From a virus (Duplodnaviria > Heunggongvirae > Uroviricota > Caudoviricetes), in IMG/VR virus record IMGVR_UViG_3300042905_002309, positions 169,278-233,277 of that record: DNA of 64,000 bases; one strand, given 5' to 3'. Below the pieces are notes generated by a model. The model was not told the origin of the DNA. It made no database searches and was given only the letters and a program-made list of their open reading frames with translations. The translations under genes were made by a program, and so were the position numbers. The first letter of the stretch is position 1. Each line of letters starts with the position of its first letter. Below are positions 14,833 to 63,455 of this stretch, piece after piece.

Positions 14833-14884
14833 TATTGAAGTTGAGTGCATAAGGCATCAAACGTAAAACAAGGTGAGATTAGTT

Positions 14885-17056
14885 ATGATTCAAAATGAGA
14901 TTAGAAATGTGATCGAGCGTTCAGATAGTTTTCCAGAAAAGACTTTCCAAATTGAGGCATCAGCAAAAGCTTTTCGTATTCTGTTTGATGGTTTGTACTC
15001 TGACAAGCCCACTGCAATCATGCGTGAATTGGGTTGTAATGCCTATGATGCACATGTCACGGCAGGTAAGGCAGACTTTAAGTTTGATGTACATCTTCCT
15101 AGTACACTTGAACCATTTTTCATGCTCCGTGACTATGGTATCGGGTTGGCACATGAAGACATTGTGACTATCTACACGATCTTGTTCAAATCCACCAAGA
15201 CTAATTCCAATGACCAAGTTGGATGCCTTGGATTGGGTTCTAAGTCTCCTTTCTCGTACACTGATAACTTCACTGTTATCTCGTATTTCAATGGTGTCAA
15301 GACGGTGTATAACATGTTCTTGAATGAGAATGATATCCCTGCTTACGCAACTTTGTTGACTGAGGAAACCACTGAACACAATGGACTTGAAATAAGTTTC
15401 TCTGTGAAACAGCAGGATATCTATACATTTTATTCCAAAGCACGAAGTACCTATACCTACTTCAAGACGAAACCCAATTTCATTGGACGTACCTGCGACA
15501 TTCCCGAAGTGACCTACATTCAGAAACGTGATGGTAAGTGGGGTTTGCGTGATGCTGATAGTTGGGGTAATGCCAATGCAGTTATGGGTAATGTTGCTTA
15601 TAGCATGGGTGGAGCCGACTTTGATACGCTTACGACAGAAGAAAAGGCTATCTTGAAGTTGAATATCGATATCTTTTTCAATATCGGTGAATTGGATGTT
15701 GCCGCTAGTCGTGAAAAACTTTCATACAACACACAAACCAAGAAAAACATTAAGGATAAACTAACTCTTATTGTTAAAGAGTTGGCAGAAGAACTTAATA
15801 ATGAGATTGCCAACTGCAAAAGTCTTTGGGATGCTAAGATTTTGTTGCATGAATTGACCAGTGGTTCCATGAAAGTTTTCCGTAATATTGTGGAAAATAT
15901 TTCCGTCACATTCAATGGTGAACCTGTCGGTAAAGAGGAAATTTGTTTCGGTGAGACAGATTATCATTCATTCAATGTTACTTCACATCTTTTCACGAAA
16001 ACTAGACGTTCTAATCGTGATCGTTATGGCTTCAATACGCTTCATTATCTTGTTGCTACAAAGTCACAGAAATTCTTTGCAGGTGATACCACAAAGAATG
16101 TTAAAGCACGTATTACCAAGTACATACAGGAACAGAAAGCTTTGGGTGTGGAAAAGGTTATCGTAAATCTTATTCACTCTGCTCACCCTGATTTACTTAA
16201 CGAAGCTGTTAAAGCGTTCAAAGTTAAAATTGGTATGGCAGATGATGTTGTGATTACGCCTGTCAGTGAGTTACCTTTTGATAAGGTTGTGCGTTGCTCT
16301 AGTCAGTCTAGCGGTGGTGGTGTGTATAACTATAAGAATACCAAGAAGATTTTCAAGTATGTTGGTGGTGGTTATAGCGATGGTGACAATTGGGAAGTGG
16401 CTGAACCAGAGTTAGATGATGGTGGTGTCTATGTTATCATTAACCGATATCGCATTGACGGTGAGAAGGCACAAAGCTACCTTGACGAATATGTAAATTT
16501 ATTCGAAAAGATTAGTGATGAACCTGTCACGATCTATGGTATCAAGTCGAATGAGTATTCAGCTACTTTTGCACCTTTGACCAATTGGGTTCCGTTGAAG
16601 ACCTATACGGAAACTTTGGTTAAGGATTATATCAAAGACAATGAACTTGAAGAGATTGTGAATATCAGTAAGGCGTATAATAGTGATTCCGTGAAGTGTA
16701 CGACTGATTTGAATGGTTATCACAATCAAACTGCTCAAAACCGAACATACTTCGAAACTTACATTGATTCACTTAAAAATCTTGTAAAGTATAAAGATAA
16801 TATCGAAACGATTCTTGAACTTTTTACGAATAAAGAAATTATTCCTTTCTTGACACCGTATGTAACGCTTGACATTGATAAGATTGGTAAGTATCGTGAA
16901 ACGTTCAAAAGTATGTTTGAAAGTATCGAGATGGATTTCCCAATGATTCGTTTTGCGGATAACTTCAATGCCAATGGTTTACAGATTGTGAAAGACTATA
17001 TTGAAATAATGATTAAAAATTCAGGAATGCTTATTGACAATCCTGCGGTAGCGTGA
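14885..17056 (+). CDS. rIIA: rIIA-like protein (GHKL-type ATPase fold N-terminus)
   Basis: RELGCNAYDAH, DYGIGL and GLGSKSPFSYTDNF match remembered T4 rIIA motifs. About 720 aa. Followed by rIIB. Confidence 0.9.
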   Translation: MIQNEIRNVIERSDSFPEKTFQIEASAKAFRILFDGLYSDKPTAIMRELGCNAYDAHVTAGKADFKFDVHLPSTLEPFFMLRDYGIGLAHEDIVTIYTILFKSTKTNSNDQVGCLGLGSKSPFSYTDNFTVISYFNGVKTVYNMFLNENDIPAYATLLTEETTEHNGLEISFSVKQQDIYTFYSKARSTYTYFKTKPNFIGRTCDIPEVTYIQKRDGKWGLRDADSWGNANAVMGNVAYSMGGADFDTLTTEEKAILKLNIDIFFNIGELDVAASREKLSYNTQTKKNIKDKLTLIVKELAEELNNEIANCKSLWDAKILLHELTSGSMKVFRNIVENISVTFNGEPVGKEEICFGETDYHSFNVTSHLFTKTRRSNRDRYGFNTLHYLVATKSQKFFAGDTTKNVKARITKYIQEQKALGVEKVIVNLIHSAHPDLLNEAVKAFKVKIGMADDVVITPVSELPFDKVVRCSSQSSGGGVYNYKNTKKIFKYVGGGYSDGDNWEVAEPELDDGGVYVIINRYRIDGEKAQSYLDEYVNLFEKISDEPVTIYGIKSNEYSATFAPLTNWVPLKTYTETLVKDYIKDNELEEIVNISKAYNSDSVKCTTDLNGYHNQTAQNRTYFETYIDSLKNLVKYKDNIETILELFTNKEIIPFLTPYVTLDIDKIGKYRETFKSMFESIEMDFPMIRFADNFNANGLQIVKDYIEIMIKNSGMLIDNPAVA

Positions 17057-17103
17057 TAAAGTATTAGTAACGAGTGAGACAATAATAACAAAGGAGAATG
17101 AAA

Positions 17104-18186
17104 ATGCAAACAGTTGGTTCTATGATTAGTGGCAGTGGTAAGATTACGATCATCATTGGTTCAAAGGTTTATACCGTTGAAACCGATCATGTATCATATC
17201 AGGACATCCTTGGTGCGCTTCGTACTAAAGATTATTCTGAATTGGAAAACCTTTTGGAAGTGGGTAAGCAGATTAATAAGTTTGGTGAAGGTAAAGTGCA
17301 GGTTATCGATGGGATCATTTATTATGATTCTATGCCCGTACATTCGGCTTTGACTAATCGTATCATCTCTTTGATGAACCAGAAGATGCCTTTTGCACCT
17401 ATGGTTAAGTTCTTTGAGAATCTTATGCTTAATCCGAGCAAGAATACTTGCGATCAAATTTACACGTTCTTGGAGTTTAATGCACTCCCTATCTGTGAAG
17501 ATGGTTGTTTCTTCGCTTACAAGCGTGTGACGGAAGAGTTCAAAGACTTTTTTAGTGGTAAATTTGATAACAGCGTTGGTGCAGTTGTCAAGATGCCTCG
17601 TAACCAGTGTAACGATGATATGCACGTTACGTGTTCTACGGGTTTGCATGTGTGTTCAAAAGATTATCTTCCCTACTATCAGGGTGGTCAGGGTCGAATG
17701 ATTATTGTTAAAATTAATCCGAAGGATGTGGTTGCTGTTCCTGTGGATTATAAGAACACCAAGATGCGTTGCTGTGAGTATACGGTTGTGGCAGAAATTC
17801 CTAAGACTATTGAGGAACCTAATAGCAAGGAATACTTCACTGCTCCCTTGTACACTGCAAAGGGTGAAGTCGCTCAAGCTGTAACGAAAGTTAATAGTCC
17901 TGTGGAAGGTGCTGATCCGTATGAACTTGGTAGTGATGCCTTTGATCGTGGTGTGGATGATGATATGAATCCTTACGAATTTGGTACGGATGATTATGAT
18001 ACGTGGTTTGAAGGTTATCAAGACGCAGAAAACGATTGTTCTGCTTATGACGAGGAAGAAGATGAAGAAGATGATGGTGGCGAGGATACACAAGGTGAGA
18101 TTGAGTTTGATCGTTCCAAGTCCGATAGTGTTGTGACTACTTATCACAACGTGCGTGATAGTAAGGGTCGTTTCGTTAGTCGCTAA
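17104..18186 (+). CDS. rIIB: rIIB-like protein with a long acidic C-terminal extension
   Basis: VVKMPR..NDD...C..GLHVCSK and KMRCCEYTVV match the remembered T4 rIIB. ATG 17098 is an alternative start. Confidence 0.88.
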   Translation: MQTVGSMISGSGKITIIIGSKVYTVETDHVSYQDILGALRTKDYSELENLLEVGKQINKFGEGKVQVIDGIIYYDSMPVHSALTNRIISLMNQKMPFAPMVKFFENLMLNPSKNTCDQIYTFLEFNALPICEDGCFFAYKRVTEEFKDFFSGKFDNSVGAVVKMPRNQCNDDMHVTCSTGLHVCSKDYLPYYQGGQGRMIIVKINPKDVVAVPVDYKNTKMRCCEYTVVAEIPKTIEEPNSKEYFTAPLYTAKGEVAQAVTKVNSPVEGADPYELGSDAFDRGVDDDMNPYEFGTDDYDTWFEGYQDAENDCSAYDEEEDEEDDGGEDTQGEIEFDRSKSDSVVTTYHNVRDSKGRFVSR

Positions 18187-24176: not shown

Positions 24177-25310
24177 ATGAGTGAGAGAAAATTAGCAAGT
24201 ATTCAGAAAATTATTGATGTTAAAGCCATTGACGGTGCTGATAAAATCGAACTAGCCTTTGTCAAGGGTTGGCAAGTTGTTGTGGCTAAGAAGGATGGAT
24301 TCAAGATTGGTGATTTAGTCGTCTATATCGAAATTGATTCACTAGTACCTGATCGTCCTGAATTTGAATTCCTTCGTGAGCGTAAGTTCCGTGTAAGAAC
24401 TATCAAGCTTCGTAAACAGCTTTCACAAGGTCTTATCGTTCCTATTGATACTATTTCTAATTTACGTCATGCTCTAATTTCATTAAAGACTATTGAAGAG
24501 GGTGATGATGTTACAGCACTTATGGGTATCACTAAGTATGATCCACAGGCACAGGAAGAGAAAGCTCTTAGCGTCCCTAAACACCAGAACAAGGTGCTTA
24601 GATACCTTATGAACTTCAAAGCCTTTAGAACGGTTTACTTAAAATTAAATCAAAAGGAGAACGGTTGGCCTGTCGGTGTTGTCTCTAAGACTGATGAAGA
24701 GAATATCCAGAATATGTACAATGTCATTTCTGAGAACTTTGAGAAGAGTTTTTATGTGACTGAGAAGTTAGAGGGACAGAGTGCGACATTCTATACCACG
24801 TTTGAGAAACATTGGGGTTTCAATCGTAAGGTGTTTGGTGTATGCTCTCGTAATATCAAACTTGAGAAACCTGACAACTCTAAGTACTGGCAGACCGCAA
24901 AGCGATATGATCTTGAGAAGGTTTTAAAGTCTTACAAGTGCCGTGTTGCTATTCAGGGTGAGCAAGTAGGTGAGGGTATTCAGGGTAATATCTATAAACT
25001 TACTGGTGTTGATCTATTTGTATTCAACGTGTATATGGATGGTAAACGTTTAGGTGTAGATGAATTGAAGGCATTTTGTGATAAGCATGGTTTAACGACT
25101 GTGCCTGTACTTGATGCAAACTTCGTTCCTTCTAAAGAAATAGTTTGCAATACCAAGGATGTTATTGTACATTACTTACTTGGATACAGTAATGGGACAT
25201 CTGTGTTATACAAGACTATGCGTGAGGGTGTTGTTTTACGATTAAATGAGAATCCTAGCGTATCAGTCAAGGCACGTAGTCCTGATTACTTAATTAAACA
25301 TGAGGAATAA
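24177..25310 (+). CDS. RNA ligase, DraRnl/Rnl5-like (N-terminal OB-like domain plus nucleotidyltransferase)
   Basis: N-terminus KLASIQKIIDVKAIDGADKIELAFVKGWQVVVAKKDGFKIGDLVVYIEIDS is typical of DRB0094-type ligases. Motif I candidate is EKLEG. Confidence 0.65.
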   Translation: MSERKLASIQKIIDVKAIDGADKIELAFVKGWQVVVAKKDGFKIGDLVVYIEIDSLVPDRPEFEFLRERKFRVRTIKLRKQLSQGLIVPIDTISNLRHALISLKTIEEGDDVTALMGITKYDPQAQEEKALSVPKHQNKVLRYLMNFKAFRTVYLKLNQKENGWPVGVVSKTDEENIQNMYNVISENFEKSFYVTEKLEGQSATFYTTFEKHWGFNRKVFGVCSRNIKLEKPDNSKYWQTAKRYDLEKVLKSYKCRVAIQGEQVGEGIQGNIYKLTGVDLFVFNVYMDGKRLGVDELKAFCDKHGLTTVPVLDANFVPSKEIVCNTKDVIVHYLLGYSNGTSVLYKTMREGVVLRLNENPSVSVKARSPDYLIKHEE

Positions 25311-29331: not shown

Positions 29332-30450
29332 ATGAAGAAAATGACTGTTGAAGATTTGCGAAAGACAGGATACATCATCTTTGAATGTATCAGTGGTTCA
29401 CATGCTTATGGAACCAATATTGAAACCTCTGATACCGATATCAGGGGTATCTATATTTTTCCTGAAAGTGAAAAGACTTTATTTGACGATCACCAATTGG
29501 AAGTCGCTGATGATAAACAGGATATCAAGTTTTTTGAACTACAGAAGTTCATGCAACTTTGCGCTGAAAATAATCCCAATGTGTTAGAGCTATTGTTTAC
29601 TCCCGCTGAGTGCATCATTTATAAGGATGCCCGAATGGATGTATTACTTACCAATAATGAATTGTTTGTAAGTCAGAAGTCTTACCATAGTTTTAATGGA
29701 TACGCTTATGCACAGATTCAAAAGGCAAAGGGTAAGAATAAGAAGGTGAATAATCCGAAGCCTGTAGAGCGTCCTGTCAAGGAAGATTACTGCTTTGTAA
29801 TTCCAGAGGGAAGGATATACAATCTTCCACCTGCTAGACCTATTAAACTTACTGAAATTACTAGTACTTATGGTGGCAGTACCGAAGTAGTTCCTTTTGA
29901 TTTGAGTAAATTTAATTGTGCTAGACTTGAACAAACTGCACATATCTATAGACTTTATTACTACGGTGATGAAGCTAAAGGTGTGTTTCGTGGTGATGAA
30001 AATCTTGTGCCAGAGTCTATCCCATTGGAAGACGAAGTTACTAAGTTTTATGGCTTACTCATTTGGAATGAAGATGCCTATAAGCGTGATGTAGCTGAAT
30101 GGAAGTCTTATTGGGAGTGGAAGAATAATCGTAATGATGCACGTTGGGTGGATCAGGAAAAGGGATTGCTTGACTACGATCAAAAGAATATGATGCATTG
30201 CATGAGACTAATGTTAAGTGGAAAGAACATCTTGACAAATGGTGTGCCACTTGTTCGATTTGATGGTGAACAGTTGCAGTATCTACGTGACATTCGTGCA
30301 GGTAAGTTTGAATATAATTTTATTATGAACGCTGTTGAAGAAAAGATGAAGGAATTGGAAGTATTAAAGGATACTACTAAGCTTCGATATGCTGTTGATA
30401 ATTACGCAATTAGCGAGATTTACAAAAAGTTGATTTATTACACACTTTAA
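29332..30450 (+). CDS. RlaP-type nucleotidyltransferase (RNA-repair-associated Pol-beta superfamily)
   Basis: GSHAYGTNIETSDTDIRGIY matches the GSxxYG...SDxDxxG signature remembered for PF10127-like proteins. Confidence 0.6.
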   Translation: MKKMTVEDLRKTGYIIFECISGSHAYGTNIETSDTDIRGIYIFPESEKTLFDDHQLEVADDKQDIKFFELQKFMQLCAENNPNVLELLFTPAECIIYKDARMDVLLTNNELFVSQKSYHSFNGYAYAQIQKAKGKNKKVNNPKPVERPVKEDYCFVIPEGRIYNLPPARPIKLTEITSTYGGSTEVVPFDLSKFNCARLEQTAHIYRLYYYGDEAKGVFRGDENLVPESIPLEDEVTKFYGLLIWNEDAYKRDVAEWKSYWEWKNNRNDARWVDQEKGLLDYDQKNMMHCMRLMLSGKNILTNGVPLVRFDGEQLQYLRDIRAGKFEYNFIMNAVEEKMKELEVLKDTTKLRYAVDNYAISEIYKKLIYYTL

Positions 30451-34847: not shown

Positions 34848-36038
34848 ATGAAAGAGATTAAAGGACAATTTAATACTGCGAAGGTGTTTGCATCAACAGT
34901 CGAACCTTCTTGTGAAGCACAAATTTTAGAGTTATGTAATGAAGAATGGGTATATAACTCTAAAATACGCATTATGGCAGACTGTCATTCTGGTAAGGGA
35001 TGTGTTATTGGTACTACTATGACAATTATTGATAAAATTGTTCCTAATTTAACCGGGGTTGATATCGGATGTGGGGTTCTTGTGACTAAATTTGATACGC
35101 TTTCTTTAACCTTGGAACAGGTTGACTCAATTGTTAAGCGTAACATCCCTATGGGTATGAATTCTCGTCAGTCTATGGTGGTTGACTTTACTCCTGAATT
35201 GGATAAGGCTATCTGTAAGGAAGCTTTTGATCCTCGTCAGGTTTGTAAGTCCATTGGTTCGTTGGGTGGTGGAAACCACTTTATCGAAATTGATAAGGAC
35301 GATGAGGGTAATTTTTATTTAGTCGTACATACGGGTTCTCGTAACTTTGGTAAGCGTGTTGCTGAACATTACCAGAACAAGGCTGTTGATTATCATTCCA
35401 AGAAGGGTTTGAAGTCTACTCAAGAAATCATTAACGAGTTGAAAGCCAAGGGGTTACAACACATGATTCCTGCTGAATTGAAGAAACGTAATGCCGTGGC
35501 TAACGAAGCTTTGACCTATTTGGAAGGTGACTTGTTTGATTGTTACTTAAACGATATGCATATTGCTCAGAAGATGGCAAGTGAGAACCGTAAGGCTATT
35601 GCAGATATCTTGTGCCGTACAATGCATATTAAGCCTACTGAACAATTTGAAACGATTCATAACTACATTGATGTTCATGCTATGATTTTGCGTAAAGGTG
35701 CTATCTCTGCGAAAGCGGGTGAAGTGTGCTTAATTCCTATCAATATGCGTGATGGTTCGTTAATCTGTGTTGGTAAGGGTAACGAAGATTATAACTATTC
35801 TGCGCCTCATGGTGCAGGTCGTTTAATGTCTCGTAAACAGGCGAAGCGTGAATTGTCTTTGGAAGGGTTCAAGGATACGATGAAGGATATTTATTCATCT
35901 ACGGTGGGTGCGTCTACGTTGGACGAAGCACCTGATGCTTACAAGCCTATTGCTGAAATCTTGGAGAACATTCAGGATACGGTTACGGTGTTGAAGCAGA
36001 TCAAGCCTATTTACAATGTGAAAGCGGAAGAGGAATAA
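34848..36038 (+). CDS. rtcB: RtcB RNA 3'-phosphate/2',3'-cyclic-phosphate ligase
   Basis: GVDIGCG, GGGNHFIE, HTGSRNFG and SAPHGAGR motifs. Confidence 0.92.
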   Translation: MKEIKGQFNTAKVFASTVEPSCEAQILELCNEEWVYNSKIRIMADCHSGKGCVIGTTMTIIDKIVPNLTGVDIGCGVLVTKFDTLSLTLEQVDSIVKRNIPMGMNSRQSMVVDFTPELDKAICKEAFDPRQVCKSIGSLGGGNHFIEIDKDDEGNFYLVVHTGSRNFGKRVAEHYQNKAVDYHSKKGLKSTQEIINELKAKGLQHMIPAELKKRNAVANEALTYLEGDLFDCYLNDMHIAQKMASENRKAIADILCRTMHIKPTEQFETIHNYIDVHAMILRKGAISAKAGEVCLIPINMRDGSLICVGKGNEDYNYSAPHGAGRLMSRKQAKRELSLEGFKDTMKDIYSSTVGASTLDEAPDAYKPIAEILENIQDTVTVLKQIKPIYNVKAEEE

Positions 36039-37796: not shown

Positions 37797-37825
37797 TTGA
37801 CTAATACAATTAAACAATGTAGTCT
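37797..37825 (+). promoter_or_regulatory. leaderless-type promoter (TTGACT 37797-37802, N17, TAGTCT 37820-37825, ATTAAAC, ATG 37833)
   Basis: Read directly from sequence. The track TTG start codon is actually the -35 box. Confidence 0.6.
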
Positions 37826-37832
37826 ATTAAAC

Positions 37833-38960
37833 ATGAATAAAACATATCCAATTATTTACAAAAGAACTAAAACGTCAGCAATTCAGACATGGCAGATCAT
37901 AGTCGAGGGTAACACTTATTATACCGTAGATGGTCAAATAGACGGTGTTAAGAGCAAATCTGCGCCTACTGTGTGTAAGGGTAAGAACATTGGCAAGGCT
38001 AATGAGACTTCCGATGAACAACAGGCTATTGCAGAGGCAGAAGCTAAAATTGAAAAGAAGCTTAAAACAGGCTATAGTGAAGATATTGCAAATATCGATA
38101 CCTGTCTAAAGTATTTTGAGCCACAACTTGCTGAAAAGTATATTGAATTTAAGGATAGTGTTGTATTCCCCATCTTGGCAAGTCGTAAGATCGATGGTGC
38201 AAGAATGGTGAATACAGCTACAGCTATTACCACTCGTAAGGGTGAAGATTATCTAAGCTGTCCACATATTCAGAAGGCACTTAAACCCTTCTTTGCCAAG
38301 CATCCTAAAGGTGTGGTTGATGGTGAAATTTATTCACACGGTCAATTCTTTGAGAAGATCATGAGTCTTGTGCGTAAGAAGAAACCAACACAAGCTGAAA
38401 TTGATGAAAGTGAGAAGCTTTGTAAATTGTGGATTTTCGATGGTATTGTAGACGATTCAAAGGAAGGTTTTGCAAAGCGTTTTTCAGACCTTAAACGAGA
38501 ATTGAAGGCTACTATTGATTCTAAAACACTTGAAAAGTATTTTGTGTTTGTAGAGAATGTAGTAATCAACAGTCATGAAGCGTTTGAAGCTGAACATGAT
38601 AAGTATGCGGGTGAAGGATTTGAAGGTGCAATTCTTCGTTATGCCAATGCTCCGTATTACAATAAGCGTAGTAAGTATCTTTTGAAGTATAAGCATTTCA
38701 TTGATGAAGAGTTTGTGATTGTTGATTTTCTTGAAGGTACTGGTTCTGATGCAGGGTTGGCTAGTAAGATCGTAGTCCGTTTGAAAGATGGTTCAACGTC
38801 AGAAGCGGGTATCCGTGGTGATACTGCATACGTCACTCAGTTGTTGAAGGATCGTAAGCATTACATTGGCAAAAAGGCAACAGTTCGTTATCAGAATTTC
38901 ACCAAGTATGGTAAGTTACATTTTGGTGTAGCGGTTAATATTGATCGATTTGATATATGA
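37833..38960 (+). CDS. ATP-dependent DNA ligase
   Basis: Motif I KIDGARM, motif IV EGAILR, motif V LLKYK. Confidence 0.85.
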   Translation: MNKTYPIIYKRTKTSAIQTWQIIVEGNTYYTVDGQIDGVKSKSAPTVCKGKNIGKANETSDEQQAIAEAEAKIEKKLKTGYSEDIANIDTCLKYFEPQLAEKYIEFKDSVVFPILASRKIDGARMVNTATAITTRKGEDYLSCPHIQKALKPFFAKHPKGVVDGEIYSHGQFFEKIMSLVRKKKPTQAEIDESEKLCKLWIFDGIVDDSKEGFAKRFSDLKRELKATIDSKTLEKYFVFVENVVINSHEAFEAEHDKYAGEGFEGAILRYANAPYYNKRSKYLLKYKHFIDEEFVIVDFLEGTGSDAGLASKIVVRLKDGSTSEAGIRGDTAYVTQLLKDRKHYIGKKATVRYQNFTKYGKLHFGVAVNIDRFDI

Positions 38961-43880: not shown

Positions 43881-44789
43881 ATGAAGAAAGTAGAGAAACC
43901 TACCGAGGATATCGGAATTGTGATAGGGCGTTTTCAGGTGCATGAACTCCATTCTGCACATTTAGATTTAATTCAAAGTGTTTGCAATGAACATGAGAAA
44001 GTTATTATCTTTCTTGGATTAAGTCCTTTAATGGTTACATCAAATAACCCTTTAGACTTTGAATCCCGTAAACAAATGATTTTAGAGAGTTTTCCAAAAG
44101 TTATTGTAATGTATATTAAAGATAATCCATCTGATGAAGTTTGGTCTAAAGATTTAGATGAAAAAATCCGAGATTTAGCAAGTCCTACGCAATCCGTTGT
44201 CCTATACGGAAGTAGAGATTCTTTCATTACACATTATTCTGGTAAGTATCGTACACAAGAATTGATGCAGGAAACTTATATTTCTGGTTCTGAAATTCGT
44301 AAGAATATTTCAAAGAAGGTTAAATCTTCTGCGGATTTCCGAGCAGGGGTGATTTGGGCTTCTGGAAATCGTTTTCCTACCTGTTTTCCTTGTGTTGATA
44401 TCGCTATCTTCAATGAAGATTATAGTAAGATTCTATTAGCTAGGAAGGCTAAAGAAACACTCTACCGCTTTGTAGGAGGCTTCGCAGACCCTAAATCAGA
44501 CTGTTACGAGACTGATGCCCGTAGAGAGGTTCAAGAGGAAACTGGACTCGAAATTGGGGATTTGAAATATCTTGGTAGTACTATTATCAACGATTTTCGT
44601 TACAGACGAGAAATAGATAAAGTCAAAACACTATTTTTTGTTGGAAAAATCTTATTTGGTCGTCCAGAAGCGAATGATGATATCTGTGAAGTCAAATTCT
44701 TTGATATTGACAAGCTAACGGCTACTGATATGATTCCTGAACATAAGCCATTATTTGATATGTTACAAAAATATTTGAAGAAATCTTAA
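43881..44789 (+). CDS. bifunctional NMN adenylyltransferase / Nudix hydrolase (NadM-Nudix, NatV-like)
   Basis: N-terminal GRFQVHELHSAH nucleotidyltransferase motif. C-terminal Nudix box REVQEETGLE. Confidence 0.8.
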   Translation: MKKVEKPTEDIGIVIGRFQVHELHSAHLDLIQSVCNEHEKVIIFLGLSPLMVTSNNPLDFESRKQMILESFPKVIVMYIKDNPSDEVWSKDLDEKIRDLASPTQSVVLYGSRDSFITHYSGKYRTQELMQETYISGSEIRKNISKKVKSSADFRAGVIWASGNRFPTCFPCVDIAIFNEDYSKILLARKAKETLYRFVGGFADPKSDCYETDARREVQEETGLEIGDLKYLGSTIINDFRYRREIDKVKTLFFVGKILFGRPEANDDICEVKFFDIDKLTATDMIPEHKPLFDMLQKYLKKS

Positions 44790-45035: not shown

Positions 45036-46415
45036 ATGGAAAACAACATTATTACATTGACTGATAGTTATAAATTTACGCATTTTCAACAGTATCCCAA
45101 AGGTACGGAATACATTTACTCATACTTTGAGTCTCGTAATGGAGCCAAGTACAACAAGACTGTGTTTTTCGGTTTGCAATATTACCTTAAAGCATACTTG
45201 CAGGGTACGGTAGTTACTCGTAAGGGTATCGAAAGTGCCGCAAAACTTTGTAAGGCTCACTTTGGTACTGAAAAGAATTTTAATCGTGAGATGTGGGAAT
45301 ACATACTTGAGAAGTATGATGGGAAGCTACCTATCAGCATCAAGGCAGTACCAGAAGGTACTCCTGTATCAGTTTCAAACGTTCTTATGACGGTTGTTAA
45401 TACTGATCCTAAGTGTGCGCCTTTGACGAATCATTTGGAAACATTATTGTCTCAGATTTGGGGAGCTTCGACTGTCGCAAGTCTTTCCTATGAGACATAT
45501 AAATTGATTGAATTTTATCGTGATCGCACAGGAACACGTAATGGAATTAAGTTTGGTTTACATGATTTTGGATTCAGGGGTGTTAGCTCTGTAGAATCTG
45601 CTGGTGTGCTTGGTGCAGGACATTTGCTAAATTTTCTTGGTACTGATACCGTAAAGGCTATGGAAGTGGCAATGGAATACTACAATGCACCACTAGACGG
45701 ATTGGCATATTCAGTCCCGGCTACTGAACATTCGGTCATGACAGCTAGGGGTAAAGAAGGCGAAGAACAAGTTTTTGCTGAATTACTTGGTACATATCCA
45801 GAAGGTATCTTGAGTGTGGTTATCGATTCTTACGACTATAAGAACTTTGTAAATGTAATTGTTCGTAAGTATAAGGATGTGATTCTTGCTCGTAATGGTA
45901 AGCTTGTTTTACGCCCAGATTCGGGCGATCCCACATCTGTAACAATTGATGTGTTTAATATGGTTGCGGATATCTTTGGAACAACTAAAAATGACAAAGG
46001 TTATAAGGAATTACACCCAAAACTTGGTGTTCTATGGGGTGACGGTATTGATTATGCGGGTATCCGTAGCATCTTATTCAGTTTGAGTAATAATATGTAC
46101 TCTACTGATAGTCAAGTTTTTGGTCAAGGTGGAGGCTTACTACAAAAGATCGACAGGGATTTTCAGCGTTTTGCATTTAAATCTTCTGCACAATGCCGTG
46201 AGGGTGTATGGTACGATATCTTTAAAAATCCTTTGGAAGTTAGTAAGGTTTCCAAGAAAGGTAAGTTGAAACTCATTAAAGATGAAAAGGGTGATTTTCA
46301 TACTGTTGGATTAAGTGATCCTCGTCCTGACGAATTAGTTGAAGTGTTTCGTGATGGTGAAATCCTTAAAGAATATACCTTTGACGAAGTTCGTAAGAAT
46401 GTTGGAACTTGGTGA
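45036..46415 (+). CDS. nadV: nicotinamide phosphoribosyltransferase (NadV/NAMPT)
   Basis: NIITLTDSYKFTH..QYP N-terminus, GFRG, and length about 460 aa. Confidence 0.88.
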   Translation: MENNIITLTDSYKFTHFQQYPKGTEYIYSYFESRNGAKYNKTVFFGLQYYLKAYLQGTVVTRKGIESAAKLCKAHFGTEKNFNREMWEYILEKYDGKLPISIKAVPEGTPVSVSNVLMTVVNTDPKCAPLTNHLETLLSQIWGASTVASLSYETYKLIEFYRDRTGTRNGIKFGLHDFGFRGVSSVESAGVLGAGHLLNFLGTDTVKAMEVAMEYYNAPLDGLAYSVPATEHSVMTARGKEGEEQVFAELLGTYPEGILSVVIDSYDYKNFVNVIVRKYKDVILARNGKLVLRPDSGDPTSVTIDVFNMVADIFGTTKNDKGYKELHPKLGVLWGDGIDYAGIRSILFSLSNNMYSTDSQVFGQGGGLLQKIDRDFQRFAFKSSAQCREGVWYDIFKNPLEVSKVSKKGKLKLIKDEKGDFHTVGLSDPRPDELVEVFRDGEILKEYTFDEVRKNVGTW

Positions 46416-46527: not shown

Positions 46528-46950
46528 ATGGCAAATATTCGACAAAGTATTTTAGTTAGAACAGATTTAAACCTTCCTAAAGGATTATCAGAAGCACAAG
46601 TGGCACACATTCATTTTGAGATGTTTAGAAAATTGTTATTAAATGATATTACTAAATCACAGTTAGATAATGATTTTAGTGTTAAAGTTACGATAGATAA
46701 GTCAATTTTAGAATGGTTAGATAGTCCGTATATTTTTGTACACGGTGTACCAAATATGGAAGTCTTGCGTCATTTTATTACACAAGCTAATACACTTAAA
46801 GTTCCTTATACTGAATGGCGAGATACTATCTATGTAAAAGTATCTGAAACACAAAAGATTGTGGTTGAAGATTGCTTAGTAGGTGTGGCCTTTTTGGGTG
46901 ATAGTGACAAGATTCGTGCTATAATTGGTGACTTGCCGTTATTGGGGTAA
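46528..46950 (+). CDS. peptidyl-tRNA hydrolase, PTH2 (archaeal/eukaryotic type)
   Basis: ILVRTDLNLPKGLSEAQVAH matches the remembered PTH2 signature VVRTDL.M.KGK.AAQ..HA. Confidence 0.65.
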   Translation: MANIRQSILVRTDLNLPKGLSEAQVAHIHFEMFRKLLLNDITKSQLDNDFSVKVTIDKSILEWLDSPYIFVHGVPNMEVLRHFITQANTLKVPYTEWRDTIYVKVSETQKIVVEDCLVGVAFLGDSDKIRAIIGDLPLLG

Positions 46951-48555: not shown

Positions 48556-48833
48556 AAACTTGGGAAACACGTTTGAAAGAAGCGGTTCAAAATAAACGCT
48601 TTACCAAAGAAGATGTCAAAGAAGCGCAATTGTGGACTACTGATCCTATCTCCGAAATTAAAGATAAGATAGAACTTAAAAACAATGACATTAAATTTGG
48701 CCCGAAAGATATCTACCTAATCTTAGATGGAATCTTCTTTACCAAAGGTGTCGAAGAGAATGATGTAGCGTTAGCAGAGGCTTGTTACAAGGGAATTCAT
48801 AAAAGAGTTGAAAAACTTTACAAAACAGTTTGA
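48552..48833 (+). CDS. hypothetical protein
   Basis: ATGA overlap with the upstream gene. Its stop lies inside the -35 box of the next promoter. Confidence 0.55.
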   Translation: MKTWETRLKEAVQNKRFTKEDVKEAQLWTTDPISEIKDKIELKNNDIKFGPKDIYLILDGIFFTKGVEENDVALAEACYKGIHKRVEKLYKTV

Positions 48834-48858
48834 CATTTAATAACGAAAAGGGTAATCT
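48830..48858 (+). promoter_or_regulatory. leaderless-type promoter (TTGACA 48830-48835, N17, TAATCT 48853-48858, ATTACAC, ATG 48866)
   Basis: Read directly from sequence. The track TTG start at 48830 is the -35 box. Confidence 0.65.
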
Positions 48859-48865
48859 ATTACAC

Positions 48866-49927
48866 ATGAAAGTATACAACACAGACAAACTACGAATTTG
48901 CAAAAGCGAAGATTATAACTACGTTTTTGACAAGACAAACGGATTCTTCGCTCGTTGGGGTAAAACGAAAGAAGACGATCCTCAGTTCGCACCGATGCCT
49001 GAAATCCTTGATATCGAAGTGACTACCATTTGTTATGGTGTGCCACATATTGATAAAGAGGGTAAACCTACTCCCCGTATCCCTTGTAAATTCTGTTACA
49101 AGTCAAATACATCGAATGGTGTCAATATGCCTTTCTCCAATTTCAAGATCATCCTTGATAAGATGCCTTGGTTGCTTCAAGTAGCCTTTGGTGCTGATTC
49201 AGAGTGTTCTTCAAATCCTGATATCTGGAAAATGATGGGTTACTGCCGTGAGAAGGGTGTCGTGCCTAATATCACTGTAGCTAATATTACTGACGAAACT
49301 GCTGACAATTTGAAGAAATATTGTGGGGCTGTTGCTGTCTCTCGTTATGATAATAAAAACCTCTGCTATGATTCTGTCAAGAAATTAACGGATCGTGGTA
49401 TGGAACAGATTAATATTCACATTTTGGTGTCTGATAACACCTATGATATGGTTATGGAAACTCTTAAAGACCGATTGACCGACAAGCGACTTGAAAAGCT
49501 TAATGCCATCGTACTCTTGAACTTGAAACAAAAAGGTCGTGGTGAGGCGTATAACACCCTTACTGATGATAAATTCAAGGTGCTTGTAGACTTTGCGTTT
49601 GATAATAAGATTACTATTGGGTTTGATTCATGTGGTTGCAACAAGTTTCTACGTGTAATCAAGGATTATCCTAATTTTAAAGAAATGGAAATGGTGTCGG
49701 AACCTTGTGAGTCAAGTTTATTCAGTTCGTACATTGATGCTAACGGAGATTTCTATCCTTGTAGCTTCTGTGAGGGACATTGCAAAGGTTGCTTGTCTTG
49801 GGAAACTGGTTTAAGCGTGTTGAAGGCTGATGATTTCCTCAAGGATATCTGGCATAATGAGAAGACAAAAATTTTTAGGGACGTACTTTTGAAAAATGGT
49901 CGTAATTGCCCTATGTATAATGTGTAA
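48866..49927 (+). CDS. radical SAM enzyme with C-terminal SPASM/twitch-like Cys cluster; atypical C-x17-C-x2-C motif
   Basis: PEILDIEVTTIC-(17 aa)-CKFCY. C-terminal FDSCGC ... EPCESSLFSSYIDANGDFYPCSFCEGHCKGC. Confidence 0.7.
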   Translation: MKVYNTDKLRICKSEDYNYVFDKTNGFFARWGKTKEDDPQFAPMPEILDIEVTTICYGVPHIDKEGKPTPRIPCKFCYKSNTSNGVNMPFSNFKIILDKMPWLLQVAFGADSECSSNPDIWKMMGYCREKGVVPNITVANITDETADNLKKYCGAVAVSRYDNKNLCYDSVKKLTDRGMEQINIHILVSDNTYDMVMETLKDRLTDKRLEKLNAIVLLNLKQKGRGEAYNTLTDDKFKVLVDFAFDNKITIGFDSCGCNKFLRVIKDYPNFKEMEMVSEPCESSLFSSYIDANGDFYPCSFCEGHCKGCLSWETGLSVLKADDFLKDIWHNEKTKIFRDVLLKNGRNCPMYNV

Positions 49928-49935
49928 GGAGTAGT

Positions 49936-50280
49936 ATGAAAATTCGAAGTGGATTTGTAAGTAATAGTTCAAGTAGTTCATTCATCGTACAGGCATGTGA
50001 TGTAGAACGTGCTAAAAGTATGGGTTTAACACTCATTTCAGTTAAAACTCTTAAAGAGTATAATAAAAAGCTTACAGAACTTGAAAACTCTAAAGCTGAG
50101 ATTATGAAGGATGTGCCTAGTTTTCTTGGTGGTGGATATAATTATTATGGATCACAAATTGATATCTTAGGTATTGATAATTTGGATGATGCAGATTTCA
50201 TTTCGGAGCCGTATGACCGTGATGAGGCGTATAGAAGTGGTATGGATGATTATTTTAGCACATTTTTGAGTGACTTGTAA
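49936..50280 (+). CDS. paralog 1 of the MKIRxGFVSNSSSSSF family (114 aa)
   Basis: SD AAGGAG upstream. N-terminus MKIRSGFVSNSSSSSF. 8-nt gap after the radical SAM gene. Confidence 0.8.
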   Translation: MKIRSGFVSNSSSSSFIVQACDVERAKSMGLTLISVKTLKEYNKKLTELENSKAEIMKDVPSFLGGGYNYYGSQIDILGIDNLDDADFISEPYDRDEAYRSGMDDYFSTFLSDL

Positions 50281-50288
50281 GGAGATTT

Positions 50289-51098
50289 ATGAAAATTAGA
50301 AACGGATTTGTGAGTAACAGTAGTTCTAGTAGCTTTGTGGTAGTATTACCTAAAAAGCCTGAATACTGTCAACAAGTTTATGAAATGTTATTCAATAGTA
50401 AGAAAGAGATAATCAAAGAAGAGTATTTAGGTGAATTGGATACTCATCAAATTTCAGAACTCGTATATAGGGATTTAGTCAATACTAAATTCAAGAGAGC
50501 TACGGTTCAAGAGGTTGCTGACTTATTTTCTGCACGTTATCATTATTGGATCAACGCTAATAGTCTCATGATGGATAATAAGGTCGTTGATAAAGACGGT
50601 GGAACCTTTTACTGTGCATCCAATAATTTTTGGGGTACTGATAAGAAGTTATTAGAATTATACAAACAATCCGTTATCAAATGTGACAAAAACTCCAAAA
50701 TGATTCAGAAACGTGCTAACGAAGTTGAAAAGAATGCACCGAATCGTGTTGAATATGCTTATAAAGACGGAAAGAATTATAAGGACGTACCTTATACTGA
50801 TACCCAAATTAAAGCCTATAAGAAATACGAAAAAGAACTTGACTTTTATCAGAAAAATGATAAAGTTTACAAAGATTTTATCAAATGGAGAGATAAGATT
50901 CATAGGTCTGATTGGGACTTGGAGCATAAATATCGCCATGCGTTAGCTAAAGTAGATGCCAAAGCATTTTTGAAGGCGTACAAGGGTAAGTTTGTATTCA
51001 CTACATCTTATTCAGATAATGATGGTTCAATTGGAGCCTTGATGGAGCATGGAAATATTTTTAGAAATGTCGAGCATGAGCGTATTAGTATGCATTAA
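50289..51098 (+). CDS. paralog 2 of the MKIRxGFVSNSSSSSF family (269 aa)
   Basis: SD AAGGAG upstream. N-terminus MKIRNGFVSNSSSSSF. Confidence 0.8.
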   Translation: MKIRNGFVSNSSSSSFVVVLPKKPEYCQQVYEMLFNSKKEIIKEEYLGELDTHQISELVYRDLVNTKFKRATVQEVADLFSARYHYWINANSLMMDNKVVDKDGGTFYCASNNFWGTDKKLLELYKQSVIKCDKNSKMIQKRANEVEKNAPNRVEYAYKDGKNYKDVPYTDTQIKAYKKYEKELDFYQKNDKVYKDFIKWRDKIHRSDWDLEHKYRHALAKVDAKAFLKAYKGKFVFTTSYSDNDGSIGALMEHGNIFRNVEHERISMH

Positions 51099-51109
51099 GA
51101 AAGGAAATT

Positions 51110-51409
51110 ATGAAAATTAGACAAGGATTTGTAAGTAACAGTTCTAGCAGTTCGTTCTGCATCTATGGTGCGTACCTTGGTGAAGATCGTGATGAAGCAG
51201 AAGCTATTGAAGCGAAGATTGGTGAACTTGGATTAAAATTAGAGGTTCATTATGGGGAGTATACTCGATGTGTTGGACGCTCATGGTGTTCTATCGGAAA
51301 TGATGAAACTGGTAAAGCATTCAAGGATGGTATTGATGAAGCTGTAACGAAACTTGGTCTTGATGCCAAAAAGACCACTACAATCGAAGAGTCTTGGTAT
51401 AACGGTTAA
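51110..51409 (+). CDS. paralog 3 of the MKIRxGFVSNSSSSSF family (99 aa)
   Basis: SD AAAGGAAA upstream. N-terminus MKIRQGFVSNSSSSSFC. Confidence 0.8.
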   Translation: MKIRQGFVSNSSSSSFCIYGAYLGEDRDEAEAIEAKIGELGLKLEVHYGEYTRCVGRSWCSIGNDETGKAFKDGIDEAVTKLGLDAKKTTTIEESWYNG

Positions 51410-51418
51410 GGAGAAATT

Positions 51419-51796
51419 ATGAAAATTAGAAACGGATTTGTGAGTAATAGTAGTTCAAGTAGTTTTTGTATCTTTGGTGTCGAGTTGACCGAAAAGGAAT
51501 ACAAAGCACTTATAGCAAAAGAAATTGCTGCAATGAAAGAAGAAGAGGGTGAAGATTTTGATGAAGAAAGTTGCGATATCCAAGATATGCTTTCAGAATG
51601 CGCCTATATTAAAAAGAATAAGTTAGATATAGTATCAACGTCCTTGGATGGTGTCAGTCTTTGTATTGGATTAGATTTATCAGATTCTTCATTAAAAGGT
51701 GAAAAACTTATTATTGAACTTACCAGAATTCATAATATTTTAAATCGTGATTATTCCCATGAGGTAGAAATCTTTTCGGGTGAGACTTATAATTAA
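51419..51796 (+). CDS. paralog 4 of the MKIRxGFVSNSSSSSF family (125 aa)
   Basis: SD AAGGAG upstream. N-terminus MKIRNGFVSNSSSSSFC. Confidence 0.8.
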   Translation: MKIRNGFVSNSSSSSFCIFGVELTEKEYKALIAKEIAAMKEEEGEDFDEESCDIQDMLSECAYIKKNKLDIVSTSLDGVSLCIGLDLSDSSLKGEKLIIELTRIHNILNRDYSHEVEIFSGETYN

Positions 51797-51805
51797 GGAA
51801 TAAAT

Positions 51806-52138
51806 ATGAAAATTAGAAACGGTTTTGTAAGTAATAGTAGCAGTTCTTCATTTATTTGTTCAGTCTGTGGTGAATCTGAAACATATTATGATGGGCTTGA
51901 AGAAGCGGGTGCAATACAGTGTGAAGGTCAATGGCATATTTTCCACGAGGATTGTGTCAAGAAATTTGATCTTGAATTTACGGAAGACCGTAATTATGGT
52001 AAATGTGTGACAAGAGCTAGTTGTCCTATTTGTAATCTTTCGGTTCTTCCAGACAGTGACGAGTTGACATTCTTACGTGAAAAGTATAAGATGTCTAAAG
52101 ATGAGATTCTAACAGAGTTACGTAAAACGAAAGGTTAA
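51806..52138 (+). CDS. paralog 5 of the MKIRxGFVSNSSSSSF family (110 aa, Cys-rich, zinc-ribbon-like)
   Basis: SD AAGGAA upstream. N-terminus MKIRNGFVSNSSSSSFICSVCG, later CPICN. Confidence 0.8.
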   Translation: MKIRNGFVSNSSSSSFICSVCGESETYYDGLEEAGAIQCEGQWHIFHEDCVKKFDLEFTEDRNYGKCVTRASCPICNLSVLPDSDELTFLREKYKMSKDEILTELRKTKG

Positions 52139-61951: not shown

Positions 61952-61980
61952 TTGACTTGTATAACAAAATCCACTATTAT
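61952..61980 (+). promoter_or_regulatory. promoter (TTGACT 61952-61957, N17, TATTAT 61975-61980)
   Basis: Read directly from sequence. A short SD-less leader runs to ATG 61995. Confidence 0.6.
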
Positions 61981-61994
61981 TGCTAAATATTGAT

Positions 61995-63455
61995 ATGAAC
62001 ACTTTTAACAAACTTTACAACTCTTTGACAGAAGCAGAAATTCGCCAGAAATTGGATAATTTTGAAGGAATCCTTCACACTAATCCGGATTTAGCTACTG
62101 CTATGGAATTATGCAAAGAAATTGAAGCCCTTGAACCTAATGCAGAAGCTTTGGTCGTAGGTGGTTCAGTTCGTGATTTAATTCTCAAAAAAGCCCCTAA
62201 AGATATCGATATTGCTACAAATGTTGATATTGAGAAGATTGCCACACACTTTCATAGTGCTGATATTGGCAAATCTAAGGATTTTGGTATCGTAGCTGTC
62301 CAATACAAGGGTCAAATCTTTGAAGTAGCTCATTACAGAGAGGATGTTTACACTGGAACGACTGATTCTAGACATCCTTCTGGAGTAAATTTAACTAAAT
62401 CCTTTGAAGCTGACAGTGAACGTAGAGATATTACGATTAATTCGTTAGGTTTGACTACTTCTGGTGAAATCGTGGATTATCAGGGTGGACTTGAAGACAT
62501 CAAGAATGGCATCATAAAGGCTGTTGGTAGCCCCAAGGATCGATTTATTGAGGATGCCCTACGCATGATGAGGGTTGGGCGTTTTATGGCTAGATATGGC
62601 TTTAAACTCGATCCTGAGACTAGACAGGCTATTATTGATTTAAAAGACCTTATTAAGAAGGTTTCCCCTGAACGTATTCGTGATGAATTGTTCAAATCTG
62701 CCTCTTCTGGTACAGCTTTGGCTAATTATATTGAACATTTAAAAGACGTTGGACTTTTAGCATTAATTTTACCTGAAATTGATATTATGGACAAGTACGA
62801 GCATACACCTGAAAGTCACCCCGAAGGTGGAGTATTTGCACATACTATTCAAGCTATCAGAAAAAGCCCTAGTAAGAATCCAATTACAAACATGGCTATC
62901 TTATTTCATGATATTGGTAAACCTGCTTCTCAAAGCTTTGATATTGATACGCATAACGTCAAATATCATGGACACGATAAGGTTGGTAGTGAAGTCTTTG
63001 ATAAGGTTGTAAAGCGTTTAAAGTTTACTAACGATCAACGTGACGCTATTTTATTTGCCATTGAGAATCACATGTTAGCACATCACATGACTGACATGAA
63101 GAAGTCACGAATTTTGGATATTCGTCAAAGTCCTCATTGGGAAACACTTAAAGATACAACTTACGCTGATGATGCGGCTAGAGGTGATAGATTTGATGCA
63201 AATGCCTATGCTGACAAGATGAATAAAGTTGAAGACATTGCCAGTAAGTTTGGTGAGAAACAAGCTTTTGAAAAGCGTATGTCTGGTTACGTAGATGGTC
63301 GAATGATTATGAATATCCTTCCTAAGATTAAAGGAACGGATATTGGAGTCATTAAAAATGCTGTACGTGAGTGGATTATTTCAAAGGACTTTAATGTACA
63401 ACCAGAAGAGGTTACAGAATACATTAAAGAATTAGGGAAAAGTCTTAATCTTTAA
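61995..63455 (+). CDS. cca: CCA-adding enzyme (class II tRNA nucleotidyltransferase with HD domain)
   Basis: GGSVRDLILKKAPKDIDIAT, RRDITINS and HD motif LFHDIGKP. Confidence 0.85.
   Translation: MNTFNKLYNSLTEAEIRQKLDNFEGILHTNPDLATAMELCKEIEALEPNAEALVVGGSVRDLILKKAPKDIDIATNVDIEKIATHFHSADIGKSKDFGIVAVQYKGQIFEVAHYREDVYTGTTDSRHPSGVNLTKSFEADSERRDITINSLGLTTSGEIVDYQGGLEDIKNGIIKAVGSPKDRFIEDALRMMRVGRFMARYGFKLDPETRQAIIDLKDLIKKVSPERIRDELFKSASSGTALANYIEHLKDVGLLALILPEIDIMDKYEHTPESHPEGGVFAHTIQAIRKSPSKNPITNMAILFHDIGKPASQSFDIDTHNVKYHGHDKVGSEVFDKVVKRLKFTNDQRDAILFAIENHMLAHHMTDMKKSRILDIRQSPHWETLKDTTYADDAARGDRFDANAYADKMNKVEDIASKFGEKQAFEKRMSGYVDGRMIMNILPKIKGTDIGVIKNAVREWIISKDFNVQPEEVTEYIKELGKSLNL

Follow-up and report, generated by a model that had tools for sequence, protein, structure and literature searches.

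A phage radical SAM enzyme with a hypervariable cysteine loop and its putative substrates, neighboring proteins that share a conserved N-terminal tag

The window analyzed here is a stretch of 64,000 nucleotides (nt) from a virus of the class Caudoviricetes, corresponding to positions 169,278 to 233,277 of IMG/VR record IMGVR_UViG_3300042905_002309. It encodes a predicted radical S-adenosylmethionine (SAM) enzyme in which 17 residues separate the first two cysteines of the predicted cluster-binding motif, followed by five tandem genes (49936-52138, intergenic gaps 8-11 nt), the first of which begins 8 nt past the enzyme stop codon. The products of these five genes start with a conserved segment, hereafter the tag; no further tagged genes were found in the 64-kb window. 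The features of the locus, with lengths in amino acids (aa), are:

48866..49927, + strand: gene of the radical SAM / SPASM-twitch enzyme; translation from the ATG at 48866 gives 353 aa
48830..49927, + strand: mechanical open reading frame (ORF) of the enzyme, 365 aa from a TTG start at 48830
48866..49000, + strand: conserved N-terminal extension of ~45 aa with four predicted beta-strands, preceding the barrel (DSSP on the predicted structure)
49031..49096, + strand: predicted cluster-binding motif C56-x17-C74-x2-C77 (from the sequence; cysteines invariant in 100/100 relatives)
49034..49084, + strand: 17-residue loop YGVPHIDKEGKPTPRIP separating the first cysteine from the second, where indels concentrate in the family
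49613..49924, + strand: C-terminal SPASM/twitch-like iron-sulfur (Fe-S) domain (SPASM score and cysteine conservation)
49936..50280, + strand: tagged protein 1, 114 aa, N-terminus MKIRSGFVSNSSSSSF (phrog_7397, E 4e-6)
50289..51098, + strand: tagged protein 2, 269 aa, N-terminus MKIRNGFVSNSSSSSF (phrog_7397, E 9e-17)
51110..51409, + strand: tagged protein 3, 99 aa, N-terminus MKIRQGFVSNSSSSSFCIYG
51419..51796, + strand: tagged protein 4, 125 aa, N-terminus MKIRNGFVSNSSSSSFCIFG
51806..52138, + strand: tagged protein 5, 110 aa, N-terminus MKIRNGFVSNSSSSSFICSVCGE

The true start of the enzyme is likely to be the ATG at 48866, because the sequence AAAGGG lies ~13 nt upstream, alignments with homologs begin at residue 13-15, and a public protein that is 100% identical (P0001) is 353 aa long. 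Residues are numbered here as in P0001; C56, C74, and C77 correspond to C68, C86, and C89 in the 365-aa numbering. The motif is in frame with the ORF 48830-49927(+) and reads TGT (49031-49033), 17 codons, TGT (49085-49087), AAA TTC (K, F), and TGT (49094-49096), so that the atypical C-x17-C-x2-C spacing described in the initial annotation, which had been counted by hand, is right in both length and coordinates. None of the three cysteines varies across 100 aligned relatives (54-82% identity), and the same x17 spacing occurs in the independently sampled P0002 (82% identity), which argues that the cysteine arrangement is not due to chance.

In three of the relatives the spacing is canonical (TTIC-TGN-CPFC and similar), and their cysteines fall in the same alignment columns as the C56/C74/C77 triad. 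Against a gathering cut-off of 29.5 bits for the Pfam Radical_SAM profile (PF04055), two of these x3 relatives pass (P0018 with 33.0 bits and P0047 with 32.0) and the third is just under it (P0119, 28.9 bits); the match of those that pass starts immediately ahead of the triad, at profile position 1. Because the x3 relatives align column for column with the window protein and pass Pfam from position 1, the alignment identifies the triad as the homolog of CX3CX2C, that is, as the usual motif lengthened by 14 residues between its first and second cysteines. Among the 100 relatives, 38 match Radical_SAM (E <= 0.01) and 72 match SPASM. An AlphaFold2 model built on the same relatives (mean predicted local distance difference test score, pLDDT, 96.2; predicted template modeling score, pTM, 0.92) has the partial (beta/alpha)6 TIM-barrel fold of the radical SAM superfamily (IPR007197), with the triad directly after a predicted strand at residues 47-51. 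Foldseek aligned this model with SuiB (E 5e-11, template modeling score, TM, 0.69), and the best structural matches are the peptide-modifying enzymes SuiB, SkfB, CteB, PqqE, and anSME. The model, the fold search, and the Pfam matches of the x3 relatives thus bear out the earlier assignment to the radical SAM fold, and the prediction for the protein is a radical SAM fold followed, at the C-terminus, by an Fe-S domain of the SPASM/twitch type (PF13186, TIGR04085).

Assignment to a narrower family was less productive. Sequence and profile searches of the PDB returned nothing relevant, only chance Numb-domain matches, and the sole match in an NCBIfam search was PapB at 18 bits against a cut-off of 340; membership in the PapB, QueE, and anSME families was rejected because NCBIfam gave only this sub-threshold match. 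The window enzyme shows neither the sequence and fold similarity nor the lack of an auxiliary-cluster domain that would place it with QueE. Its best family match is phrog_7293 (E 1.6e-108), a PHROGs family without an assigned function.

Two other parts of the enzyme are conserved. Strands are predicted in the N-terminal extension at residues 2-5, 9-13, 18-22, and 28-31, and K10, S14, Y17, N18, F21, K23, G26, R30, W31, G32, D38, and P39 are invariant or nearly so, making this beta-extension a candidate docking site for the tag. In the C-terminal domain C256, C281, C299, and C348 are invariant in the 100-sequence alignment, a twitch-like set consistent with a single auxiliary cluster; a further invariant cysteine, C167, lies outside the clusters. 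The window protein has four additional C-terminal cysteines (C258, C302, C306, and C309), for a total of eight in the region. Three of them (C302, C306, and C309) come from an insertion, CSFCEGHCKGC, at residues 299-309 (49760-49795), which adds them to the invariant C299; C306 and C309 are present in just 1-2 of the 100 relatives. Judged by number, eight C-terminal cysteines are possibly enough for a second auxiliary cluster without a counterpart in most relatives.

Clustering the ORFs of 83 enzyme loci revealed that the only widely shared neighbors of the enzyme are several groups with products starting MKxRxGFVSNSS. From 182 distinct N-termini the consensus of the tag is M-K-[ITV]-R-x-G-F-V-S-N-S-S-S-S-S-F-[IVC]-[IVL], with R4, N10, S11, and S12 invariant, and the motif never occurs beyond residue 60 in 1,583 ORFs. 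Every conserved serine position of the tag shows a mixture of AGY and TCN codons, and for this reason selection is taken to act on the tag as protein rather than DNA; an origin as a recombination or regulatory DNA cassette was rejected on the same ground. The bodies that follow residue 18 are by comparison unrelated: BLAST sorts 205 proteins into 75 groups, 51 with a single member, and no Pfam family recurs among 148 tagged representatives. A profile built from the five tags of the window matched 21,255 of 1.84 billion representative proteins (50%-identity clusters) at E <= 0.001, a total that may include serine-rich false positives near the threshold; among the matches listed the tag itself was present in 145 of 148, at residue 1-3 in 140. 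A search with a 44-aa tag profile returned short proteins only and no annotation. In eight of the 148 tagged representatives (P0329-P0336) a single ORF contains the tag twice, with a methionine always before the internal copy, as if two tandem tagged genes had fused or a stop codon had been missed. Two other readings of the tag were discarded: a signal peptide or lipobox, since the hydrophobic core is lacking, and a glycyl-radical motif, since the register differs from RVxG[FWY]. To our knowledge, activases of the glycyl-radical type lack SPASM domains, a second ground against the glycyl-radical reading.

The association of enzyme and tag was examined in both directions. Using a slightly relaxed tag motif and 5 kb around the enzyme, 65 of 81 enzyme loci carry between one and nine tagged genes, and all 214 of these nearby tagged genes are on the enzyme strand (188 downstream, 26 upstream). 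Conversely, when viral loci were sought with a degenerate DNA pattern for the tag, more than 118 came up, and the enzyme is present in 44 (37%) of the 118 that were listed, which average 8 kb in length. Four contigs with no tagged gene near the enzyme locus have tagged genes at other sites (L036/L116, L043/L096, L079/L129, and L080/L086). Isolated-phage records number 175 for a tagged protein of a Pseudotevenvirus-like contig and 173 for the enzyme, with a closely similar host breakdown. As expected for RiPP maturases (RiPP, a peptide made by the ribosome and modified after translation), the enzyme is accompanied by co-encoded putative precursors that share a conserved recognition segment but vary in the rest, here proteins and not short peptides.

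Within the window, tagged proteins 1 and 2 match phrog_7397, a PHROGs family which like that of the enzyme has no assigned function; a link to phrog_7293 is absent from the library annotation. Tagged protein 2 has a C-terminal motif in common with a tagged protein of the Pseudotevenvirus-like contig L096, and tagged protein 5, with a Cys-rich body resembling a zinc ribbon, falls in the C-terminal similarity group with the most members (18, from 15 loci). Tagged protein 3 (51110-51409), modeled with 90 relatives (mean pLDDT 79.6), is unstructured over residues 1-15 (pLDDT <50 at 5-12) and folds from F16 onward into a beta-alpha-beta-beta-alpha-beta domain, for which a fold search gave no informative match. 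The tag is thus predicted to be a flexible tail before a folded domain, and that the most conserved segment should be a flexible tail fits a linear motif read by another protein.

We consider it fairly probable that the window encodes a SPASM/twitch-class radical SAM enzyme with a hypervariable cluster loop that serves as a maturase for the adjacent tagged proteins; judging from gene linkage and structure prediction, the tagged proteins are probably its substrates. The enzyme would bind the tag, perhaps on the conserved N-terminal beta-domain; SAM would be reductively cleaved at the C56/C74/C77 cluster; hydrogen would be abstracted from a residue of the tag; and a modification would be installed on the tag with the help of the auxiliary cluster C256/C281/C299/C348. 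Candidate chemistries include i) oxidation of a serine C-beta to formylglycine, as catalyzed by anSME; ii) C-alpha epimerization as catalyzed by EpeE/YydG, for which the invariant non-cluster C167 could be the hydrogen donor; and iii) an aromatic-to-C-beta cross-link within F7-V8-S9, as made by the enzymes that form three-residue cyclophanes. More tentatively, we suggest a large phage-specific modification system in which one maturase reads a universal 16-residue tag and puts the same modification on polymorphic small effectors; given their early-gene, NAD-salvage, and RNA-repair neighborhood, these effectors would plausibly be host-takeover or anti-defense factors. The literature searched, which did not extend to subscription-only sources, contained no description of either the enzyme family or the tag.

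Several observations weigh against a tag-directed maturase, or against parts of that interpretation: i) the profile search proposed in the initial annotation yielded no Pfam Radical_SAM match for the window protein, probably because the loop insertion breaks it, and a SPASM (PF13186) score of 21.4 bits that falls 0.1 bit under the cut-off of 21.5; ii) the position after beta-2 where a GGE motif is expected reads FGADS, with Q105, A107, G109, and D111 invariant; iii) Pfam and NCBIfam searches detected no RiPP recognition element (RRE) or PqqD-like domain in the window enzyme; iv) the fold matches also include BlsE, DesII, and BtrN, and SPASM/twitch enzymes act on small molecules too; v) 16 of the 81 enzyme loci have no tagged gene within 5 kb; vi) in Pseudotevenvirus-type phages the enzyme and the tagged genes are ~20 kb apart, as seen in one Klebsiella phage; vii) co-occurrence in isolated phages is not phylogenetically independent, and weighs less than metagenomic linkage because these phages are closely related to one another; and viii) shared regulation, and not a relation of enzyme to substrate, could explain the gene linkage. 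The separation of the genes is seen in L001 and related Pseudotevenvirus loci of cultured T4-like phages (GAP161 and the RB16/RB43 group); the genes are adjacent in most metagenomic phages.

The likeliest alternative is a genuine radical SAM enzyme acting on a small molecule or nucleic acid (a nucleotide, a sugar, or a tRNA or DNA base), the tagged proteins being an unrelated, co-regulated early set and the tag a degron, a packaging or localization signal, or a site recognized by a host factor. Surroundings that encode nicotinamide phosphoribosyltransferase (NAMPT), NMNAT-Nudix, RNA ligase, RtcB, a CCA-adding enzyme, and tRNAs would suit such an activity, as would the undetected RRE and the separation of the genes in RB43/GAP161-type phages. 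We nonetheless regard this alternative as rather unlikely: the best structural matches modify peptides, the tagged genes are the sole conserved neighbors in very divergent, non-syntenic phages, always sharing the enzyme strand and mostly lying just downstream, and a search that starts from the tag recovers the enzyme in more than a third of the short loci listed.

The spacing between the first two cysteines, as distinct from the enzyme that carries it, turns out to vary throughout the family. Loop lengths among the 100 relatives are:

x3: 3 sequences
x7: 36 sequences
x8: 5 sequences
x9: 4 sequences
x10: 1 sequence
x11: 2 sequences
x12: 39 sequences
x13: 1 sequence
x14: 1 sequence
x17: 2 sequences (P0001 and P0002)
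x18: 2 sequences
x19: 1 sequence
x21: 1 sequence
x24: 2 sequences

On a neighbor-joining tree of these sequences, built with the loop columns left out, loop length changes at least 34 times; with shuffled labels the changes average 50 and never number fewer than 43. This result suggests some phylogenetic signal and heavy homoplasy. P0001 and P0002 are nested among x12 forms, and their next relatives (73% and 72% identity) are themselves x12, with loops such as GVPNKDGVKIP; the x17 loop therefore resembles the common x12 loop elaborated by five residues. The suggestion that x17 might mark a distinct clade does not survive this comparison, and on the alignment and tree we take expanded spacing to be a trait of the whole family, with x17 defining no deep clade. 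The x17 finding is correct but modest, one rare length of a hypervariable surface loop and not a new kind of cluster site; the linkage to tagged phage proteins is the more notable result. At the barrel mouth, after strand beta-1, the loop tolerates indels freely in the phage family.

A precedent that had been cited for long spacings is real: QueE of Burkholderia multivorans has CX14CX2C, a canonical site with one extended loop (PMC4389238). QueE and the window enzyme are alike in that many residues are inserted between cysteines one and two of the cluster motif, and for QueE the canonical site has been shown. QueE orthologs differ around the cluster pocket, and the 2019 study cited to that effect in PMC11142719 is reported there as attributing the differences to co-evolution with flavodoxin. 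By analogy, a loop tuned to the host reductant is a plausible alternative beside a merely tolerant surface loop.

Could the 17-residue insertion itself be functional, as a substrate-binding surface or the mark of a functionally distinct subclade? In the general radical SAM architecture such a loop lies beside the SAM cluster at the barrel mouth; it is modeled fairly confidently here (pLDDT ~89-90), and it is rich in Pro and Lys, with conservation between P0001 and P0002. We nevertheless think this improbable, given that x17 occurs in only 2 of 100 sequences, that the variation around the QueE pocket is attributed, in the account just cited, to flavodoxin and not to substrate, and that the loop varies freely among close relatives while the putative substrate tag is nearly invariant. 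A role for the loop as a key substrate contact, as the initial annotation had envisaged, is unlikely because it is hypervariable in both length and sequence and the tag is not. Least probable is a degenerate or non-catalytic homolog whose stretched motif holds no SAM-cleaving cluster: missing matches to Pfam Radical_SAM and, by sequence, to solved structures would fit it, as would FGADS in place of GGE, but the triad, the four auxiliary cysteines, and ~40 further positions are invariant in 100 diverged relatives and therefore under strong purifying selection as a metallo-enzyme site, Pfam recognizes the x3 relatives, and QueE demonstrates that a long loop between the first two cysteines is compatible with activity.

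The tag-directed maturase that we favor would belong to the phages themselves. The enzyme family comprises at least 2,377 clusters at 90% identity, and the isolated-phage records that carry it, all ~46% identical to the window enzyme, are from Pseudotevenvirus and relatives on Klebsiella, Enterobacter, Cronobacter, Citrobacter, and Escherichia, together with Vibrio phage D479; they are annotated as 'putative radical SAM protein' or 'hypothetical'. A scan of prokaryotes (one genome per species, 185,579 species) found just 17 matching loci, 16 on contigs of metagenome-assembled genomes (MAGs) and one on a Flagellimonas marina contig, and the family is therefore essentially viral. The sole non-MAG record (L204, strain CGMCC 1.15774, contig NZ_JBHSCL010000010.1) encodes a relative 46% identical to the window enzyme, with no tagged gene within 6 kb; at 178,077 bp the contig is about as large as the genome of a T4-like phage, and it may be a phage sequenced along with the isolate. 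The 20 kb around the enzyme gene of the window had no megablast match among INPHARED phage records.

Elsewhere in the window, an NMNAT-like/Nudix gene (43881-44789) lies beside a NAMPT gene (45036-46415), a phage NAD+ salvage pair which we take to be of the kind linked to countering NAD-depleting defenses. A PTH2-type peptidyl-tRNA hydrolase homolog is found at 46528-46950 (Pfam E 2.7e-7), and the window has genes for tRNA-Tyr, tRNA-Lys, and tRNA-Leu. RNA-repair and tRNA functions are abundant at 3120-38960 and 61980-63455. Other genes of the window are:

14873-18186: rIIA/rIIB
24177-25310: RNA ligase
29332-30450: nucleotidyltransferase
34848-36038: RtcB
37797-38960: ATP-dependent DNA ligase
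61980-63455: CCA-adding enzyme

All ORFs of at least 280 aa in the window are on the + strand, and the window looks like the early or auxiliary region of a large T4-like phage. A promoter and terminator scan of 47-53 kb found such sites to be no more frequent than in shuffled sequence.

In structure and gene arrangement the window enzyme is closest to the RiPP-type SPASM maturases, with 14-18% identity to SuiB (the streptide Lys-Trp cross-linking maturase, PDB 5V1Q/5V1T), SkfB, CteB, and PqqE. It differs from the SuiB type, however, in several respects: i) it has a 45-aa beta-domain and no detected RRE; ii) the phage family keeps four auxiliary cysteines, twitch-like and suited to one cluster, rather than the seven-cysteine SPASM set, which holds two; iii) the loop between the first two cysteines is expanded and variable; iv) the conserved segment stands at the very N-terminus of putative substrates that are folded proteins of 60-390 aa, not short leader-core peptides; v) these putative substrates occur in multi-copy polymorphic arrays, up to nine per locus, unlike SuiB-type precursors; and vi) the enzyme family is almost exclusively viral. 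The anSME substrate motif (C/S)-x-(P/A)-x-R is absent from the tag, no anSME model matches the window enzyme, and anSME has two auxiliary clusters, unlike the twitch-like phage family. The peptide epimerase EpeE/YydG has no sequence similarity to the window enzyme.

We wish to emphasize two consequences of the variable loop. Pfam Radical_SAM misses most of the family through the loop insertion, leading to under-annotation in phage genomes; and the demonstration that the loop between the first two cysteines takes 3 to 24 residues without loss of the conserved site should be useful for motif-based mining and for thinking about reductant docking. If the tagged proteins are indeed substrates, many phages, including well-studied T4-like phages of Klebsiella, Enterobacter, and Cronobacter, would mature small proteins of a large and fast-diversifying set by radical chemistry; this would be a new class of viral post-translational modification, and the tag would provide a handle for finding thousands of candidate effectors.

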